NCBI GenBank assembly: GCA_024233875.1
Contig: JACKPB010000009.1
Span: forward strand, 149,191-208,773
Origin: Leptospiraceae bacterium
GTDB lineage: Bacteria; Spirochaetota; Leptospiria; Leptospirales; Leptospiraceae
Length of the DNA stretch: 59,583 nucleotides
Reading direction: 5' to 3'
A model generated the notes under the pieces. It was not told where the DNA came from and made no database searches. It saw only the letters and a program-made list of their open reading frames with translations. This document shows, piece after piece, positions 2,044 to 21,776 of this stretch; position 1 is the first letter of the stretch, and every line of letters begins with the position of its first letter. Made by a program: the position numbers and the translations under genes.

Positions 2044-2460
2044 CTATAATTCTTTCTTCTCGAGGTTTTTTTCGAATATTATGTCTCTATCCAGCAACTC
2101 TCTCAGATGAATGCAGGAAAGACTGATTATTGGTATCATAATCAATTCCGAACAATTTGCCTGAATTATTTCTGAGTAACATGAAATAGCAGCAGTTTGG
2201 ATTTCTATAGAATGTGAATTTACCTTTTTTTCATATCCTTTCAGAATATTTTTTTTACAATCTTCTAATCCACTCTCCTGTAAAATATCCGATGGAAAGG
2301 TTCTATAGATATAATTGAAGCAAGTTTGCATTTTCTTACAGGTGATTTCAGATACCACTGAATGCATTTCCGGATAATTCATTTTATTTAGATCCGGTAC
2401 TTTCTCTTTGCAGGAAGAAAATACCAGTATTGAAAATAAAATCAATCGAAGATATTGCAT
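2044..2460 (-). CDS. Putative lipoprotein, Cys-rich hypothetical
   Basis: Signal peptide plus spirochete-type lipobox LVFSSC-KEK. The 19-nt overlap with the upstream gene suggests an operon. Confidence 0.45.
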   Translation of the reverse strand: MQYLRLILFSILVFSSCKEKVPDLNKMNYPEMHSVVSEITCKKMQTCFNYIYRTFPSDILQESGLEDCKKNILKGYEKKVNSHSIEIQTAAISCYSEIIQANCSELIMIPIISLSCIHLRELLDRDIIFEKNLEKKEL

Positions 2461-4142
2461 TCCAATTCTCCCTTTCGATTCATATAAGAATCCAAAATTG
2501 TAAAATCTATTTGCGTATCTCCATATTCTTTCATACTTTTCAATTTTTCCAAGTATTCTTCCTCTGAATCCCGTAATCCAATGAGTAAAGAATTTTTAAT
2601 TATATCTTTCTGTAGGATATCTCTAACCGGATTCACCCAGGATCTTTTGTAGTTCTTTAAATACCATACCTGATATCTCTTTATCACCTTACCATCTACT
2701 ATTATATCCTTCTCCGGGAATTCTATGACTTCTTCAAACATCATTTTTAAAAAAGTTTGGAAAAATATAAAAGATTTCTGACAGGGCTTTTCTTCGATGT
2801 AATACAATAGATAATTTTTACCTATTTTGATATCTAACCAATAATTGTATTGGTTCTTTTGCAAAATATTGAAACTTTGAATGAAGGGCTTTCCATCTGC
2901 AAACCAGGAACCGATAGCGGCATCCTGATATCTATTTGCGATAAGTTCGGCGTCAGAATATTTTGTATTACGAAAATTTTCAATTTCTTTAATTATTTCT
3001 TTGAATCCTTCAGTTCTATACCCCGGAACATAATGGGAATTGAGAGGAATATTAAAATTTTTCACTATAGGTACTGATAGAATAGAAAATACGTTCATCA
3101 ATGCGCAAATAAGGAAAGTGATATAGATTAAAATTTTATATTTTTTTTGATGTTTAGAAATGATCTTTTCTAAAAATTCAGCCATGAATATAGAAAGGGG
3201 TAGATAGGAAGCAAAAACCCAATTTGCCTGAATGACCTTCTGAATCGAAAGAATCAAGAAAAATATTGGTAGAACTAATGCATTTATGCCTAAAAAATAA
3301 CGAATCTTTGTGCTAGCATTGATCTCAATTGAAGGAAATTGAATCAAATTCTTTAAAGACTGAAAAAACAATCCGATTCCTATGAGGAAGAAACCCGGGG
3401 ATAAGGTTAGGATCTGACCGGCTAGATAGGAACCTGTATTGAACTTCTTGACATTCACTCCACCTGCAGAACGCAAATTAATGATAGCGTCGATATTATC
3501 CCAATTGTTCTGAGTATTCCAGATGATTATAGGTGATATAACCAAGGCCGTTATGCATATGGCTAAGTAAGATTGATATGATTTGAATATTGCAAATTCA
3601 TCCCGAAATAGAATTAACCAGATAAAAATACTTATTAAGAAAAAGACCATTGTATGCTTTGAGAGAGCACCTAGGCCCACAAAAAGAAACAATAGGTATA
3701 GATCGAAATCTTTTCTTTCTTTTATGTATTTGGAAAAAAAATATATTCCACCAGACCATGCGATCAATAGAGGTGAGTCATGCATGATAAGCATACTTCC
3801 TGTAAAGAATCCGGGTATCAGGAATAGAATGAACAAGAGGAAAGTCTGAGCTAATTTAGAAAAATTTAGCAAACTTGAAGTCAAGAAAATGAATATTGTT
3901 GTTAAGAACCCCGCAAAGTTGGATGCTAAACGAAGTGCAATCAGATTGTCACCAAAAAGTTTAGTAAAAAAGTATATGTAATACGCAACTCCAGGACCCT
4001 GATCATAATAGGAAAAATCCAATTTTCTTGACCATTCCCAATAATAAGCTTCATCCGGAATCAAATCGAAGGTCAGAGATAAAAAGAATTTTAAGAGGTA
4101 AAAAAAGAATACTATAAGAATCCCTGAAAATGGATTTTTCAT
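2442..4142 (-). CDS. ArnT/PMT-like (GT39/GT83-type) integral-membrane glycosyltransferase
   Basis: The N-terminus PDEAYYWEWSRKLDFSYYDQGPG matches the DEAYYW..WS..L..GYYD motif of 4-amino-arabinose / dolichyl-phosphate-mannose glycosyltransferases. More than 10 hydrophobic segments. 566 aa. Confidence 0.7.
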   Translation of the reverse strand: MKNPFSGILIVFFFYLLKFFLSLTFDLIPDEAYYWEWSRKLDFSYYDQGPGVAYYIYFFTKLFGDNLIALRLASNFAGFLTTIFIFLTSSLLNFSKLAQTFLLFILFLIPGFFTGSMLIMHDSPLLIAWSGGIYFFSKYIKERKDFDLYLLFLFVGLGALSKHTMVFFLISIFIWLILFRDEFAIFKSYQSYLAICITALVISPIIIWNTQNNWDNIDAIINLRSAGGVNVKKFNTGSYLAGQILTLSPGFFLIGIGLFFQSLKNLIQFPSIEINASTKIRYFLGINALVLPIFFLILSIQKVIQANWVFASYLPLSIFMAEFLEKIISKHQKKYKILIYITFLICALMNVFSILSVPIVKNFNIPLNSHYVPGYRTEGFKEIIKEIENFRNTKYSDAELIANRYQDAAIGSWFADGKPFIQSFNILQKNQYNYWLDIKIGKNYLLYYIEEKPCQKSFIFFQTFLKMMFEEVIEFPEKDIIVDGKVIKRYQVWYLKNYKRSWVNPVRDILQKDIIKNSLLIGLRDSEEEYLEKLKSMKEYGDTQIDFTILDSYMNRKGELECNIFD

Positions 4143-13877: not shown

Positions 13878-16053
13878 TGCTGGTCACCACCGTTTTATTT
13901 TTAATTTCGGTAGAACTTGAAATTTCCAATGAGTTATTTTAAAGAACCTGATAGATTTGAAACATCCGGAAGAAATAGTCTTATGTTTCACTCTATTTAA
14001 AATAGAAACTTATGTTCTTAGTAAAGATTCCATCTCCAGAGAAAGGCCCCAAAAAGAGAAAATCTTGAAAATCTACCCTGTGGGTACTACAGGCCGAAAT
14101 ATCAAAATTTTCCAAATTTTGGGTATTCTCATATCAACGGAGAAACGAAAATTTCAGCAAATAGTTTACTAACTCACATTACGCAAAGAAGTGAAATGTG
14201 AGGTTGCAGGGAGCCTGCGGACAGCTTGGGCTATCGCCTAAACCCATATTTTTATTGATTTATTAGCAAAAAATGATTTTGATTTTAAACTAAAAAAAAT
14301 TTGAAAAATAAAATACTGCGTAGGATGAGTTACTAATTCATTGCAAAGGGGCATTAGGACTTTTCTCTAGTAGAACAAATATCCTAGCCTCTAATTAGGT
14401 TTCATCAGCCATTCTGACCTTGAACTAAGATTTTAGAGTAAACACAGAAGAGATCTTTGCTCATTAAATAAAGAAGAGGAAATAATTTTCCTCAAATCAC
14501 AAAGAGGATACAATTCAAAAAAATTAAACACCAATTCCCAAATTGCAATAATAGAAGAGATCAAGCATTCGTGACTGATGGAATAGATCTTATGATTTTT
14601 CAGGGAGATGAAAATTTTTATTTATAGTCATTTTCAGAAGGTTTGCGCATTCACAGAAGAATCATCTATAAAACGGCTACAAACCTTACGAAGAAATACG
14701 TAAGTATTTATGAAAACCGGTATAGAAGAAACTCAAATCCACTCTTTCATTCGAACTTTACTTTCCGAACATCCAAAAAATATTTCATTCTATGGATTTT
14801 TAGGAGCTGAGTGATGAAAAACAAAAAATTCCAGGAGTCTTGATAATAGATTACTTTAGAAAGATACAAATTGCATATTCAATTCAAAGTTGATGTATAG
14901 CTAGAAAATAGTACGCAACCCACCCACTCCAAACCGGAGACTACTTTGATTGGAAACTTTAGACCCTTGATTTCGTAACCGAATCTTTTAAAGAAAAATA
15001 CAATAGGATTTCAGATAAGAACCCAAGTTTCATTTTTGAGTGCTTGAAAATAAATATGGATGAATTGAATTGCTTCATTAGTTTACAAAAGCAGAAAGGA
15101 AAATATGAGTACATCGACTTAGAAGACACCCTATATCCATTTTGAGGTAGTACTGAGGAATTCATATTTTGCTAAAAAGAGAGAAACTGAATTGGGAAGG
15201 AAGGAATTTTTAGAAAAAAGGATAACTATCAATACTTAGAAAAATAATCTAAAGTAGATGGAAATGCTTGAATCCTATTTTTTCCGATGAAGTAGGACTT
15301 TGCATTCTGAAGAAATCTCTCCTGTTTAAAATGAAACCTGAATGGTGTTAAAAAGATTGTTCCACCCGCTCTCAATAAGTTTTAAGAATACAATTGCTAA
15401 AACTGAAATTCACAGACAACCGGAAGGTCCAGAAGAACAGTTCAGCGACCCTTCCCCAAACCTCACTCTATTACAGGCATAGAAATAAAATGAAAATTTA
15501 AAAGGCTACTGGATTTGAATTATAAGAAATAAGGATATCAAATAGAAACTTTTGAATGAATTGAACAAACCGTTTGGAATTATTTTCTTTTTGATCTTTT
15601 GAAAAACCGAAATTCATTCTGTTTTTTATTTAAACCATCTTATCTATATGTGCATACATCTAAAAAATTTTCAAATGGGTCGTGATTTTAAAAAAAAGAT
15701 ACATTCCGAAAAAATAAATTTCTTCATTTTTTCTCAATTTTAGATAGAATACTTGCCTATCAACAGAATAGAAGCCTAATGAAGGTTTGTACCAGAAGCA
15801 TGAAGATTTTAAAGAAATAATGGAGTTTAAGCACAAAATCAATCTGATTGAAAAGAATTTAAATTAGATTTTTTAGTAAAAAACTCAATATTTTCCCATA
15901 TTTTTACTATGTCTCATTAAAAAAAAGTACACATTCTAAAAAAATATTATTTATTGGATTGACCTTGCATAGGGCATTTCCGATATTAATTACGGGATAG
16001 ATTTATTTATAAGTCTGTCTTAAATATTGAAAGAGAGTTAAAGGTATAACAAG

Positions 16054-16959
16054 ATGAAGATTTTCAATAGACTAGTCATTCTCTTAGTGCTGATCAACTT
16101 TGGTATTCTATATGCTCAGGATCCAGCTCCTGCAGGACAACCAGACAAAGCTGCAGCAAATAGTGAAGAAGAAGTTACCATTAAGGGCGAGCTTGTTCCG
16201 GATGATGATGCTAATCTTTCCGATGAAGAAAAAGCAAGAAAGAAAGAAATCATTAAGCAAGAAGCTATGTGGAAGAACCCCGACTTTGCTGGTTACAACA
16301 AAGCATTCGAGGATTTACACAAACTTTCCAAAGCTTTTGCTAACAATAAATACAGACTTGCACTTTCCGCTTACCAGTCTGGTATGAACACTATTCTCAA
16401 GATGAGAGAAAACATCGAGCAATACAGAAAAGAGCAATCTGAAAAGAAGCGTCTTGATGAAAAATGGTACTGGCAAAAAATCGATAGAAAAGCTAACGAA
16501 GAAAGATATATTCAACGTGAAAAAATGGCTGCTAAATTAGCTGCAGTTACTTATTTCACTAAAGCGATCAATCACCTCGATGAAATAAAAAATCCTGACC
16601 TCAGAGAAGAGAAAGCATACAAAACACTTCTTTCTTCTGTTTACAGAGCATGGATTATGGCTGAATATGATACACAGAATTATCCTCAGTGTATTCCTAT
16701 CATAGAGCTTTACCTCGAGCTTGATCTTAACGAAAAAGAGTACCCTGCTCATAAATACCTGGCTAGCTGCTATTCTTTCGAAGAAAACACTTTGAAAAAA
16801 TACAAAGCCGGTAGCGATGACCAAGTACAAAAACTCAAGAACAAGAAAAACGTTCACCTTCTTAGAGCAACTGAGCTGAAGTATGGCAAAGGTTCTGTAG
16901 AATACAAACACATTGTAGACATGGTGAATAGAGACGAAGTAATTTCTGTCACTCCTTAA
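16054..16959 (+). CDS. Secreted hypothetical protein (non-lipoprotein signal peptide) with expression-optimised codon usage
   Basis: Signal peptide [23 protein letters not shown] with no Cys. Codon choice differs markedly from neighbouring genes: CTT/CTC, TAC, AAC, TTC, GCT and AAG are preferred. A strong terminator follows. Confidence 0.6.
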
Positions 16960-16984
16960 TAACTTGCTCTTTCAATTTTAATAG

Positions 16985-17010
16985 AACAGCCCCGAAAGGG
17001 GTTGTTTTAT
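16985..17010 (+). terminator. Rho-independent terminator
   Basis: AACAGCCCC-GAAA-GGGGTTGTT forms a stem-loop followed by TTTAT. Confidence 0.6.
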
Positions 17011-17104
17011 TAAATTGAAATCCCCTCCCCCTTACCACCTCCAATGAGAAATAAAAAACACTGTTGAGGTTACTCAAACCTGAACTAATCTCAACAGATT
17101 ATCC

Positions 17105-17968
17105 ATGCATCCAAAAGACTCTATACTTTATGTTTTAAGAAAATCCCAAGCTTTCTTGAAAGATAACGGAATCGAATCTTCTCGATTGGATGCTGAACTT
17201 TTATTATCAGAAGTTTTGAACTTCAATCGCGTTAAACTCTACACACATTTTGAATACAAACTTACAGAAGAGCAAAAAGACAATTATAGAAAATTATTAA
17301 AAGAGAGAGCTAAAAAGGTTCCTATTGCTTATCTCACTAAAAAGAAAAATTTTTATAATTCTACATTTTATGTAGATCCTTCCGTATTGATACCAAGACC
17401 CGAGACTGAAGAACTTGTAGAATGGGTTCTTAAAGATACTCCATCAATAGAAGAATACACCGTCTTAGATTTGTGCACCGGATCGGGTTGTTTAGGGATT
17501 TCTTTAAAGAGAGAAAGACCCAATTGGATACTGCATTTTTCTGATCTATCTATGGAAGCGCTTGAAGTTTGCAAAAAAAACTATTTCAGTATAATAGAAG
17601 ATGATTCGTTCAATAATTTTTATATTTCAGATTTATTTGATAGCATCCCTATTAAAAAATTTAACCTTATCACTATCAACCCTCCTTATATACCCAGTAC
17701 CGAAAAGGAACTTCTATCAGCGGGTGTGTATGAATATGAACCCCATCTAGCTTTATTCCTGGATCATCATGAAGAATTTCTTACGAAATTAATTAAAAAT
17801 CTCGATAATTACATAGAAGACACAGGAAATTTGTTTATGGAAATTCATCCTGATTGGGAACCCATATTGAAGAAAATTGTATTACAAAGCAATAAACATA
17901 TCGTATTTAAAAAAGACTATAGCAATAAAATAAGGATGGCAAAGATATCTAATGAGCTTACTCAATAA
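17105..17968 (+). CDS. prmC: Release factor glutamine N5-methyltransferase
   Basis: Catalytic NPPY motif in ITINPPYIP, and the SAM motif DLCTGSGCLGISL. Confidence 0.8.
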   Translation: MHPKDSILYVLRKSQAFLKDNGIESSRLDAELLLSEVLNFNRVKLYTHFEYKLTEEQKDNYRKLLKERAKKVPIAYLTKKKNFYNSTFYVDPSVLIPRPETEELVEWVLKDTPSIEEYTVLDLCTGSGCLGISLKRERPNWILHFSDLSMEALEVCKKNYFSIIEDDSFNNFYISDLFDSIPIKKFNLITINPPYIPSTEKELLSAGVYEYEPHLALFLDHHEEFLTKLIKNLDNYIEDTGNLFMEIHPDWEPILKKIVLQSNKHIVFKKDYSNKIRMAKISNELTQ

Positions 17969-18398
17969 ACCGGCACCGGATTTTTCCTTAATAAATTCAG
18001 AAGGAGCAAAGGTATCTTTATCAGATTTTAAAGGAAAAAAAGTTCTTTTAGTGTTTTATCCCGGAGATGATACAGCTGTTTGCACCAAACAACTTTGCTC
18101 TTATAGTAGCGGATTTGAAGAATTTCAAAATTTAAACATAGAGATTCTGGGTATCAATAAAGATAGTGTAGAATCTCATAAAAAATTTAAAGAGAAATAC
18201 AAATTGAATTTAAATCTATTGAGTGATCCCGATGGAAAGGTATGCAAAACATACAATGCATTAGGACTCATTGGGGTCAATAGGACTACTTACTTAATTG
18301 ATGAAGAAAGTAAAATCATTTTTGAAAACACGGTACTCCCAATATTTTACAAAGACAAAGATGATATAATGACTTCTATTAAATCTTTGATTTCATAG
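17952..18398 (+). CDS. bcp: Peroxiredoxin Bcp (thiol peroxidase, thioredoxin fold)
   Basis: KKVLLVFYPGDDTAVCTKQLC has the peroxidatic Cys motif and a resolving Cys five residues after it. 148 aa. Confidence 0.8.
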   Translation: MSLLNKPAPDFSLINSEGAKVSLSDFKGKKVLLVFYPGDDTAVCTKQLCSYSSGFEEFQNLNIEILGINKDSVESHKKFKEKYKLNLNLLSDPDGKVCKTYNALGLIGVNRTTYLIDEESKIIFENTVLPIFYKDKDDIMTSIKSLIS

Positions 18399-18404
18399 TT
18401 TACA

Positions 18405-19616
18405 ATGGATAAGTCAATCCCTTACATCCCTCCTATTTCTAGATATACCCGCCAGGTATCTTATGAAGATTGGTTTCTCTCAACAGAATACTTTGAGAAA
18501 AAAGATTATTACAATTCGTTTAAATACTTACTAAAATACATTAATGCTCCAATAGATATACCGGATTCAGACACTCTTGATCTAACAGTTCCCCAGGGTT
18601 CTGTCTATCTTCGTATCAAAGCAGATAAAGAGAAGTATTCATTTTCAATTCCATTTTTGAAGTTCACTAAAGATTCGAATCGAATAGCGGCTATGCGCAG
18701 AATGATTGAGCAGAATTTTTCATCTTTGATATTGAGTCAGATAGTGCTACGTGAGGATGAATTGTATTTTCACTATGAAGATAATATTTATAATGCAGAG
18801 CCTTATAAAATCTATTTTACTCTTGATGAGATGTCCACTGAAGCTGACAACACAGATGACTATTATATAGATAGATTCAATCTGGAACATATCATTAAAC
18901 CTGATTTAGATTATTTTACCAGCGAAGAATATGAGAAATCAAAAGAACTCTTCTATACTATTCTGAATGATAGTATTGCAGGTTCGGAATACTTTGAAGG
19001 TAAGAGAAATTATAATTCAGCCTGTGATTATTTGGCTCTATGTTTATTTAAGATAAAATATGTGATTTTTCCTCAGGGAATTTTAGGAAGAGAAATTCAA
19101 GAAATCTTAAATTATATGTATTCTAATGAAGGTGTTAATACAATACTAAACAACACCAGATTGAAAATTAAAAAATTAATAGAAATTGAAGAATCCAAAT
19201 TCAAAGACAGTCTTTTTCATCCAAAATTCTTTATACCTATCAAACCGCGATTAGATTTGATTAAATTGCAGGAAATACTAAAACCCATCCAAGAAAAAAC
19301 TCAAGAGATTATAGGGAATAAAGCCTACCAGGAATCAGGAATCTATATTCTCTACAATTTGTACTATATCTTAGATGGATACTCGATAAATTCTCACCTT
19401 CAGGATTCCATAGAGCATGCTCTATCAGATGTTTCACAGAAAGACTGGAAGTTTACATCTGATTATTTATTAAAATTAATTAATAATATTATGATTATTA
19501 AACTAGATGAGGAAGGAAATATCACTTCAGGTACACTCGATATATTTGAGACAAGCAAAGAGAAGAAAAGTAAAATGAATTCGATTTTTTCAAAAATCCG
19601 AAATATTTTCAAATAA
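18405..19616 (+). CDS. Hypothetical protein with N-terminal YbjN-like (T3SS-chaperone-like) domain and about 230-aa uncharacterised C-terminal region
   Basis: Residues about 60-170 (VYLRI..YSFSIPFLKF..NRIAAMRRMIEQNFSSLILSQIVLREDELYFHYEDNIY..YFTLDEMSTEADNTDDYY) are recognisably paralogous to the C-terminal domain of the next gene. The YbjN assignment comes from pattern memory only. Confidence 0.45.
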   Translation: MDKSIPYIPPISRYTRQVSYEDWFLSTEYFEKKDYYNSFKYLLKYINAPIDIPDSDTLDLTVPQGSVYLRIKADKEKYSFSIPFLKFTKDSNRIAAMRRMIEQNFSSLILSQIVLREDELYFHYEDNIYNAEPYKIYFTLDEMSTEADNTDDYYIDRFNLEHIIKPDLDYFTSEEYEKSKELFYTILNDSIAGSEYFEGKRNYNSACDYLALCLFKIKYVIFPQGILGREIQEILNYMYSNEGVNTILNNTRLKIKKLIEIEESKFKDSLFHPKFFIPIKPRLDLIKLQEILKPIQEKTQEIIGNKAYQESGIYILYNLYYILDGYSINSHLQDSIEHALSDVSQKDWKFTSDYLLKLINNIMIIKLDEEGNITSGTLDIFETSKEKKSKMNSIFSKIRNIFK

Positions 19617-19637
19617 TGTCTAGAGGACTTTTATATA

Positions 19638-20732
19638 ATGAATGAATTAGAATCCATATTCCCTGCAATTATAAAAATAAATACATCCGAGGGTAGCGGA
19701 AGTGGATTGTATTACAAAAAATTACATCTTATCATAACTAATTTTCATGTTATATCCGGATTTCGACGTGTAGCTTTTGAAACACAATCGAAGGAAACAA
19801 TTTCTGCTGATGTAATAATAGTAAATCCACTGATAGATATAGCCATTTTAAAACCTCATAAGCATTTAGACTCAATGCCGGAAGTTTCTTTTTTAAAACA
19901 TAAGTACTTAAAAAATATGGACAAAGTTTCGGTACTAGGATATCCATATGGAATGCCTTTTACGATTACTGAGGGGATTATTTCTTCAGTTAACCAACTT
20001 TTAGGCGGGCAAAAGTACATCCAAACAGATGCTGCAGTCAATCCAGGTAACAGTGGAGGACCACTAGTCAATAATAATGGTAAAATTATCGGTATTACAA
20101 CTTCTAAATTTAGCAATGCTGACAATATGGGATTTGCTCTACCTATTGACAGAGTCATTGATGAACTAGATGCTTTAGATCAAAACCCAAACTATATTTA
20201 TTCAGTAAAATGTCCTTCCTGTAATTTTCCCCTCTATGAGGAAACTGAATATTGTCCAAACTGTGGAAATGAATTAGATATCGAAAATCTCTTTAAAGAA
20301 ACTCCTAAGACATATATCGCTGTATTTGTAGAAGAAGTCTTTAAGGATCTAAATTTAGATCCAGTGATAGCCAGAAAGGGATTGGATTACTGGGAATTTT
20401 ACCAGGGTAGTGCTCAGGTAAGGTATTTTGTTTACAGAAATAATTATTTATTTGCTGTGAGTCCTCTCAATAAGCTCCCAAAGAATAGATTATTAGAACT
20501 TTATGAATACATATTAAGCAATAAGGTTGAGCCATTTTTATTAGGTATAAGCGATTCAGTCATCTATATATCTTATCGTATCAATCTTTCTGATATTCAG
20601 GGAGAAGATAAGTCAAAAATCCAGAAAAATCTTGTTAATTTAGCCTTAAAAGCTGATGAGATGGACAATTTCTTTTATGAAAAGTATCAATGTGAGTACT
20701 ATGATAATTCAAAACTTGATATTCAAACTTAA
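19638..20732 (+). CDS. Trypsin-like (S1/S1C) serine peptidase fused to a zinc ribbon and a C-terminal YbjN-like domain
   Basis: Catalytic-region motif GNSGGPLVNNNGKIIGITTS. The zinc ribbon is CPSCNFPLYEETEYCPNCGNE, which has a CxxC...CxxC arrangement. C-terminal VRYFVYRNNYLFAVSPLNKL..NRLLELYEYILS..FLLGISDSVIYISYRINL..LALKADEMDNFFYEKY is a paralogue of the upstream gene's domain. Confidence 0.65.
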   Translation: MNELESIFPAIIKINTSEGSGSGLYYKKLHLIITNFHVISGFRRVAFETQSKETISADVIIVNPLIDIAILKPHKHLDSMPEVSFLKHKYLKNMDKVSVLGYPYGMPFTITEGIISSVNQLLGGQKYIQTDAAVNPGNSGGPLVNNNGKIIGITTSKFSNADNMGFALPIDRVIDELDALDQNPNYIYSVKCPSCNFPLYEETEYCPNCGNELDIENLFKETPKTYIAVFVEEVFKDLNLDPVIARKGLDYWEFYQGSAQVRYFVYRNNYLFAVSPLNKLPKNRLLELYEYILSNKVEPFLLGISDSVIYISYRINLSDIQGEDKSKIQKNLVNLALKADEMDNFFYEKYQCEYYDNSKLDIQT

Positions 20733-20846
20733 TTTTTTTCTTAATTTAAATATTCTTCTTGTATAAATATTCCAAAAAACTCAGATATTATAAGACTCTT
20801 AAAAACTTCATTTAGAGACTAAATTCACAAAAATCAAGGAGTAAAG

Positions 20847-21776
20847 ATGAAAAAAATTCTTACACTTTTCATTTTATTAATGTTCTTTTCCTATTGTAAA
20901 GCAAAGGAAAAGGTAACCATTCTAACCGGTAGTGCGGATGGAAATTATTACAAAGGTGGTATGGTACTTAAAAAGATTTTAGATAAGAACTTTGATTTGC
21001 AAGTGATGGAATCAAATGGTTCCTTTCAAAACATTGAGGATTTGAGTGCAGGAAAAGCTGATTTTGCTTTTGCTCAGTTTGATACAATTCTAGTCTTTGT
21101 TGGTATGGGTGGTGAGTACAAAGATAAGGTCAATAAATGTCTGGCTGTTGCCCCTATAGACAACGAAACTGTTCATATACTAGTTAACAATAATTCAGGA
21201 ATCAATAGTCTGGCTGATTTAGCTGGAAAGAAAGTAGCTATGGGTGAAGAAAAATCCGGAACTTGGATAACTACAAAAATTATAGCTAAAACTATTCTTG
21301 ATGTTGATGTAAATGCAGAAGGATCCGGATTTCAATACATGGAAGATGCTGAAGCTCTCAAGAAACTCATCGATGGTGAAATTGATGCAATGTTCTTGGT
21401 TTCTGCAATGGGAACTCCTCTACTCAAATCAGTTGATGCTGACGCAGGTGAGAAAATCAGACTTTTATCTTACACAAAAGCTGAAATTCCTAACACTCTA
21501 GCTTCCAGATACATTGCTATGACTATCAATAATGGAACCTATCCATGGTTGAAAGAAGAGATTGAAGTACCCGTTACTGCATCTTTCCTTTTAGTAAATG
21601 AAACTGTAACTCCTGAAAAACTTGAAGCTATAGGTAAGTTGATATATGAAAATGATGACGCAATGGATGAAGAAAGTAATACGTTTCTTTCTAGAGGTAA
21701 AGAAATTGCTCTCAAACAAATTGATATCGGAATTCCTTACCACAACTCCATCAAAGCATATCTAAAGAAAAAATAA
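20847..21776 (+). CDS. TAXI-family TRAP-transporter solute-binding lipoprotein (orphan)
   Basis: Lipobox FFSYC-KAK. VTILTGSADGNYYKGG and the overall pattern match COG2358/TAXI receptors. No DctQM-like membrane gene is nearby. Confidence 0.65.
   Translation: MKKILTLFILLMFFSYCKAKEKVTILTGSADGNYYKGGMVLKKILDKNFDLQVMESNGSFQNIEDLSAGKADFAFAQFDTILVFVGMGGEYKDKVNKCLAVAPIDNETVHILVNNNSGINSLADLAGKKVAMGEEKSGTWITTKIIAKTILDVDVNAEGSGFQYMEDAEALKKLIDGEIDAMFLVSAMGTPLLKSVDADAGEKIRLLSYTKAEIPNTLASRYIAMTINNGTYPWLKEEIEVPVTASFLLVNETVTPEKLEAIGKLIYENDDAMDEESNTFLSRGKEIALKQIDIGIPYHNSIKAYLKKK

Follow-up and report, generated by a model that had tools for sequence, protein, structure and literature searches.

The 59,583-nt window analysed here, a stretch of contig JACKPB010000009.1 from a Leptospiraceae bacterium with a G+C content of ~33%, carries two adjacent genes, designated A and B, that appear to encode an as yet undescribed protein pair. 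Judged from its sequence and predicted structure, B belongs to the HtrA-type (S1C) serine proteases, but a zinc ribbon and a YbjN/type III secretion system (T3SS)-chaperone-like domain, hereafter the TY domain, stand where a PDZ domain is usual. A joins a homologous TY domain to a helical region, and the two genes recur as a two-gene unit, in housekeeping surroundings, in other bacterial phyla. What is new here is the accessory module of an HtrA-type protease and the dedicated, homologous protein that accompanies it. We consider it probable, if by a modest measure, that A and B form a conserved two-gene operon for a cytoplasmic, ATP-independent protease module in which TY domains replace PDZ and A associates with B.

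The S1-family protease core that a first-pass annotation had proposed for B was borne out. Pfam Trypsin_2 matches residues 21-153 (E = 2.4e-24), the GNSGGPLV motif is present, and comparison with the PDB returns HhoA and HtrA2 at ~5e-23. In an alignment of B-type proteins, His37, Asp67 and Ser139 are invariant, as the catalytic triad of S1C proteases requires, and the AlphaFold2 (AF2) model of B reaches a pLDDT of 91.3 and a pTM of 0.86. The NCBIfam HtrA model TIGR02037 gives B 132.9 bits against a cut-off of 416.2, and all equivalog models remain far below their thresholds. Neither Pfam nor NCBIfam detects a PDZ domain in B, the C-terminus being made up of the zinc ribbon and the TY domain. 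The zinc ribbon itself had been predicted correctly, and its four cysteines are invariant or nearly so in the B alignment, but the spacing previously given (CxxC-x16-CxxC) was wrong, the actual arrangement being C192-x2-C195-x10-C206-x2-C209. The predicted location of B is cytoplasmic, because neither a signal peptide nor a transmembrane segment or anchor was detected and its N-terminus is not hydrophobic; the highest KD19 value, 1.55, lies inside the protease fold. The window's B is 100% identical to a protein from a Leptospiraceae MAG (metagenome-assembled genome). Full-length homologues are 50-72% identical across phyla, which makes B-type proteins unusually well conserved. Some carry additional C-terminal sequence: several Flavobacteriaceae proteins (loci L026, L033, L039, L048 and L067) have a ~55-aa extension ending in a SHOCT-like motif recognised by eye (LKKLKxLFEMxLITEEDYxxKKKxIL), and those of Saprospiraceae (L034, L071) have a ~140-aa helical extension.

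The domain shared by A and B had been proposed from a block-by-block alignment, which agrees with that produced by hhalign except for a two-residue offset in the first block. A residues ~47-172 and B residues ~240-362 are homologous. Compared pairwise by BLASTP, the two proteins give a marginal match (E = 0.008, 25% identity over 110 aa, A 64-169 against B 256-361), and on that comparison a chance or compositional resemblance within an AT-rich genome could be entertained. The match nevertheless gains strength with profile depth, from BLASTP to hhalign of five A against 23 B sequences (E = 8e-4) and then of 69 A against 23 B sequences (probability 95.7%, E = 9.6e-9, A 47-172 against B 240-362). 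Smith-Waterman alignment of A47-172 with B240-364 scores 75, compared with 31.5 ± 5.6 for shuffled sequences (z = 7.7), a score equalled by none of 2000 shuffles. The matches are also reciprocal at the level of hidden Markov models (HMMs), since the A-family HMM recognises 63 of 88 B open reading frames (ORFs), 49 of them at E < 1e-3, and no unrelated ORF among 1561. Given in addition that the TY domains of A and B have identical predicted topologies in the AF2 models and that both profiles find the same PDB entry, 2PLG, chance similarity was ruled out and retains practically no credence; nor is the shared block a low-complexity artefact. The description of the two domains as paralogous holds in so far as they belong to a common superfamily: by hhalign, A and B are about as distant from one another as each is from YbjN/2PLG. 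As far as the alignments go, the relationship is therefore one of shared superfamily membership, with duplication within the operon a plausible origin of the two TY domains.

At the superfamily level, profile and model comparisons assign the shared domain to the YbjN/TY-chaperone superfamily (PF10722, PF22551, CesT clan), in agreement with the YbjN or T3SS-chaperone-like fold suggested earlier. The profile of the C-terminal 143 residues of B matches a single PDB entry, 2PLG (Tll0839), over the whole domain (E = 1.2e-4); the A-family profile finds the same entry (E = 8.9e-5), and the A model matches it by structure too. Against the 2PLG segment, hhalign scores B at 86.8% and A at 95.2%, and the segment itself is recognised by YbjN PF10722 at 2e-18 and by TY-Chap1 at 1e-9. 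In the AF2 model, B residues 226-350 follow the alpha-beta3-alpha-beta2-alpha order of the chaperone fold of this superfamily (helices 226-237, 285-293 and 325-350; strands 251-256, 259-266, 270-279, 301-305 and 308-316). Existing Pfam models reach these families at their margins: TY-Chap1 (PF22551) matches 31 of 69 A-family members, all below the gathering score (best 1.8e-6), the YbjN model matches three of the 69, a few B domains give sub-threshold CesT or TY-Chap1 matches, and the window's own A and B proteins give no above-threshold match to the YbjN and TY-Chap models. The fold is that of the YbjN family (E. coli YbjN, Erwinia AmyR 5FR7, Deinococcus DR1245 4H5B, Tll0839 2PLG), with which A and B also have in common an AD-x-x-DD/N motif in the last helix. 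Known YbjN proteins, however, are small stand-alone dimers (~130-160 aa for YbjN sensu stricto), whereas B and A combine the domain with a protease and with a ~200-aa helical region, respectively, within proteins of 364 and 403 aa.

For the window's protein A, no sequence match was found in Pfam, NCBIfam, PADLOC or the PDB. Its C-terminal ~230 aa likewise have no Pfam, NCBIfam or PDB sequence match, as the first-pass annotation had remarked, and a structure search with residues 173-363 returned resemblances to generic four-helix bundles alone. The AF2 model of A has a pLDDT of 94.3 and a pTM of 0.88. No transmembrane or signal segment was detected in A, which is predicted to be cytoplasmic. 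A word-indexed search had returned five homologues and made A look like a lineage-specific orphan, a view overturned by an exhaustive HMM search that recovered at least 598 cluster representatives at 50% identity, mostly of 365-400 aa. The C-terminal tail of the window's protein, which is modelled with low confidence, is confined to a subgroup of ~400 aa; most family members stop near profile position 367. Among unusually long members, P0247 (569 aa) carries a C-terminal SUKH-1/SMI1-KNR4 domain (2e-19), P0204 (670 aa) has a predicted transmembrane helix followed by a ~230-aa beta-rich region with no Pfam match, and P0194 (527 aa) ends in a long Lys/Glu/Ser-rich tail.

Conservation of the pair was surveyed with the B TY-domain alignment, each GTDB species being represented by a single genome. 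The scan recovered at least 336 species, a lower bound since it uses fixed patterns, and neighbourhood counts rest on the best 80 loci, of which 79 could be evaluated. In 71 of these 79 species loci (~90%) the gene immediately preceding B, in the same orientation, is an A-family ORF, so that the concern that the two genes might not be neighbours in any other genome did not materialise. Linked pairs occur in Leptospiraceae, Flavobacteriaceae, Saprospiraceae, Chitinophagales, Cytophagales, Desulfobacterales and Peribacteria, the Desulfobacterales and Peribacteria pairs coming from one metagenome-assembled genome (MAG) each, and cultured hosts include Aureibaculum, Maribacter and Flagellimonas. 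The same arrangement is seen on a separately retrieved WOR-3 contig and on further spirochaete contigs, and B-type proteins as such were found in Leptospiraceae, Bacteroidota, WOR-3 and Peregrinibacteria. Across 76 loci the median A-B spacer is 16 bp, and in several of them the stop codon of the first gene overlaps the start codon of the second, an arrangement consistent with co-translation. Across loci, A and B alone are conserved: none of the window's own flanking genes recurs elsewhere, and the flanking genes are housekeeping in character and vary with lineage (prmC and bcp in the window; uvrB, dnaN, RecQ, purine and thiamine genes and LD-carboxypeptidase among the others). Within Flavobacteriaceae, synteny of the pair is stable. 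Two MAGs contain two separate A-B pairs each, namely the Saprospiraceae TAG_MAG_00010 (L034 and L073) and SRP163575_co1_75 (L071 and L078).

Evidence for a link between the two proteins themselves comes from fusions and from rates of change. In two rare and independent natural fusions, P0198 (L093, 1818-3383) and P0228 (L092, 147-1760), a complete A is followed by a TY domain of the B type (hhalign 99%, E = 3e-19 and 5e-21), and neither protease nor zinc ribbon is present. An in-frame deletion of the protease segment is the probable origin of P0198, because this fusion lies downstream of a CarboxypepD_reg-like gene, the position occupied by A-B in flavobacterial loci; a 175-aa gene downstream of it is unrelated to A or B. 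No full A-B fusion was found among the long A-family members. As Rosetta-stone-type evidence, the fusions lend support to a functional and physical link of A with the B TY domain. In a mirror-tree and partial-correlation analysis of 69 A-B pairs, the distances of A and B domains co-vary (r 0.82-0.93), as would fit two genes that are inherited together. Mean p-distances are 0.41 for the B TY domain, 0.45 for the B protease, 0.50 for the A TY domain and 0.66 for the A helical region; the TY domain is thus the slowest-evolving part of each protein, that of B being the most conserved of the pair and the A helical region the fastest to change.

Several observations weigh against the association of A with B through their TY domains. 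The conserved B motifs QGS and KADExDN are degenerate in both fusions, which could accordingly be decaying remnants. The mirror-tree analysis gives no TY-TY-specific signal (partial r 0.12), and it is the protease domain that the A helical region tracks best (partial r 0.50). Furthermore, ~10% of B genes have no adjacent A and yet conserve the TY domain (L029, L030, L032 at 2073-3242, L041 and L087; also L005, L050, L068, L085 and L091), including a Bacteroidota clade and a divergent Bernardetia homologue; the B TY domain may function on its own, or these genomes may encode A at another site. In one Bacteroidota clade a YdjM-family inner-membrane protein takes the place of A upstream of B, and in one Bacteroidia genome B lies beside uvrB. 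The B genes without an adjacent A and the lack of TY-TY-specific co-variation would fit a model in which A and B act independently through TY homodimers, with B homodimerising or bridging trimers via its TY domain, as DegP builds cages with PDZ, and A serving as a separate holdase-type chaperone of the same pathway that forms no stable complex with B. Homodimerisation is indeed found in YbjN proteins and in most class I chaperones (PMC5398634). We regard independent action as unlikely, however, given the very tight adjacency of the genes with stop/start overlaps in several loci, the co-divergence of A and B, and the existence of fusions of A to a B-type TY domain.

Precedents from related folds suggest how an associated pair might operate. 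YbjN proteins are dimeric and non-enzymatic and act via protein-protein interaction (PMC5398634), and T3SS chaperones are dimeric, non-enzymatic binders of proteins or peptides (PMC9503650); both are described as wrapping extended segments of their clients. By analogy, the TY domains of A and B would take the role of PDZ, taking hold of an extended stretch of a client polypeptide to present it to the protease, or gating the protease. A would associate with B, most simply by TY-TY contact of the sort seen in YbjN dimers and in the SycN-YscB heterodimer, and its variable helical region would serve as an adaptor, regulator or lid that sets the timing or target of proteolysis. A more specific version, that the pair forms a cytoplasmic, ATP-independent protease machine of a class not seen before, in which a heteromeric TY pair of protease and dedicated adaptor grips an unfolded segment of particular client proteins and feeds it to the HtrA-type active site, is a possibility that we put forward tentatively. 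To judge by the genomic setting, the role would more likely lie in regulated proteolysis or in the quality control of proteins than in secretion or phage defence.

In textbook accounts, HtrA proteases are quality-control enzymes that work outside the cytoplasm under the regulation of PDZ domains. B is like HtrA, DegP, DegQ and DegS (MEROPS S1C) in its chymotrypsin fold and His-Asp-Ser triad, but unlike them it has no PDZ domain, signal peptide or anchor, carries the zinc ribbon and TY module, and is accompanied by a dedicated partner gene. RsgI9 S1C-NTF2 (7SJY) also combines an S1C domain with a non-PDZ C-terminal module, but it is an extracytoplasmic anti-sigma sensor whose accessory domain folds differently and which lacks a paralogous partner. 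Class I T3SS chaperones, among them SycN-YscB, a heterodimer (1XKP) of the kind that A and B may form, differ from the present pair in their secretion system and effector gene, both absent here, and in the fusion of A and B to other modules. That A and B might act as secretion chaperones, for a T3SS or another system, and that B would process the exported cargo, is very improbable: no secretion-system, T3SS or effector genes occur in the window neighbourhood or at ~90 related loci, and the best match in both sequence and structure is the non-secretory YbjN family. Nor is an injectisome T3SS known from the host phyla (Bacteroidota, Leptospiraceae and the candidate phyla radiation).

Conflict systems provide another comparison. 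TY-Chap1/2/3 of the ARG-centred ADP-ribose conflict systems (Iyer, Burroughs, Aravind et al., Viruses 2022, PMC9503650) share a superfamily with the A and B domains and are predicted peptide-binding chaperones within multi-gene systems; the present pair differs in having no ARG, Macro or NADAR genes, in matching the TY-Chap models below gathering scores, and in its housekeeping context in place of a conflict island. The presence of TY-Chap families in conflict systems (PMC9503650) nevertheless raises a further reading, in which A is a cognate inhibitor or pseudo-substrate of protease B within a toxin-antitoxin or abortive-infection-like defence cassette. A would keep B inactive until a trigger, for example a phage protein bound by a TY domain, freed B to cleave essential proteins of the host or invader. 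Such a cassette would be in keeping with a patchy distribution across distant phyla despite ~50% identity of B, with the much faster evolution of A than of B, with the fusion of one A homologue (P0247) to an immunity-type SUKH-1/SMI1-KNR4 domain, and with the two MAGs that hold two copies of the pair. The protease domain of B also resembles the PADLOC RT-Protease_XI and PDC models, but the PADLOC v2 matches (RT-Protease_XI, PDC-M35A and PDC-S45) are limited to the generic protease part and A has none, whereas both components of a known anti-phage system would match. The pair is absent from viral (IMG/VR) contigs and A from plasmids, where the one distant B-like match is the divergent gene standing alone on a 600-kb Bernardetia chromid (L091). 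All neighbourhoods examined are housekeeping with no defence island, the Flavobacteriaceae synteny is stable, and B, its TY domain above all, is unusually conserved for a defence gene. We consequently judge the defence reading improbable, and a defence role less likely than one in regulated proteolysis.

The layout of the locus is set out in Table 1; the ORF coordinates, shared orientation, 21-bp gap and lack of an intervening terminator reported in the first-pass annotation were all confirmed. A Shine-Dalgarno-like AGAGGA site at 19622-19627 lies 10 nt ahead of the gene B ATG, and the terminator scan found no terminator-like site across 16800-21100. Upstream, prmC overlaps the peroxiredoxin gene by 17 bp, and the latter ends 6 bp before A. 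Because of this overlap, the 6-bp gap and the lack of a terminator-like site, prmC-bcp-A-B is probably a single transcript in this genome, although this context is absent from all other loci examined.

Table 1. Positions of the A-B gene pair, its encoded domains and adjoining genes within the window (residue numbers refer to the encoded protein)
Feature	Position	Strand	Residues, context or basis
prmC	17105-17968		upstream of A
Bcp-type (Bcp/AhpC-TSA) peroxiredoxin gene	17952-18398		upstream of A
Gene A	18405-19616	+	403 aa; ORF list
A, N-terminal helical hairpin	18462-18542	+	residues 20-46, ahead of TY domain; AF2 helices 20-31 and 35-46
A, TY domain	18570-18884	+	residues ~56-160; beta3-alpha-beta2-alpha
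A, all-alpha region	18921-19493	+	residues 173-363; ~nine helices
A, C-terminal helix/tail IFSKIxNxFK	19557-19610	+	residues 385-402; alignment and AF2 helix 385-402, pLDDT 54-73
A-B spacer, 21 bp	19617-19637	+	sequence and terminator scan
Gene B	19638-20732	+	364 aa; ORF list
B, HtrA-like chymotrypsin-fold protease domain	19665-20183	+	residues ~10-182
B, catalytic His37	19746-19748	+	codon
B, catalytic Asp67	19836-19838	+	codon
B, catalytic Ser139	20052-20054	+	codon
B, zinc ribbon	20202-20276	+	residues ~189-213; sub-threshold Zn_Ribbon_1 and DZR matches, Cys conservation
B, TY domain	20307-20693	+	residues ~224-352; AF2, profile match, hhalign

Two further features of the window lie upstream of these genes. 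An AT-rich segment of ~2.1 kb (13930-16050) holds no ORF longer than 71 aa amid otherwise dense coding; no tRNA, tandem repeat or Rfam family at gathering score was detected in it, its repeats are short and at chance level, and it may represent either the remains of a gene or a long stretch of non-coding DNA. The neighbouring 301-aa ORF (16054-16959) has a signal-peptide-like N-terminus and no Pfam match, and its product is a predicted lineage-specific secreted protein or lipoprotein.

The first-pass annotation knew of no described system of this kind, and our literature searches, directed at TY-Chap proteins and at YbjN in combination with a protease, zinc ribbon or peptidase, found no description of the pair. 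The A family and the B C-terminal domain are likewise not covered by any Pfam, NCBIfam or PADLOC family, and defining both would improve the annotation of many marine Bacteroidota and Leptospiraceae genomes. A widespread cytoplasmic branch of HtrA in which PDZ has been exchanged for a zinc ribbon and TY domain, and to which a partner has been added, would represent a different route to substrate capture and gating. The YbjN family is important yet poorly understood (PMC5398634), and a version of its domain hard-wired to a protease makes the question of what YbjN domains bind experimentally tractable. If the TY pair does act as a client-capture machine, a concrete biochemical role, the capture of clients for proteolysis, would for the first time be assigned to a YbjN-type domain, and this could hint at the mode of action of the stand-alone YbjN proteins.

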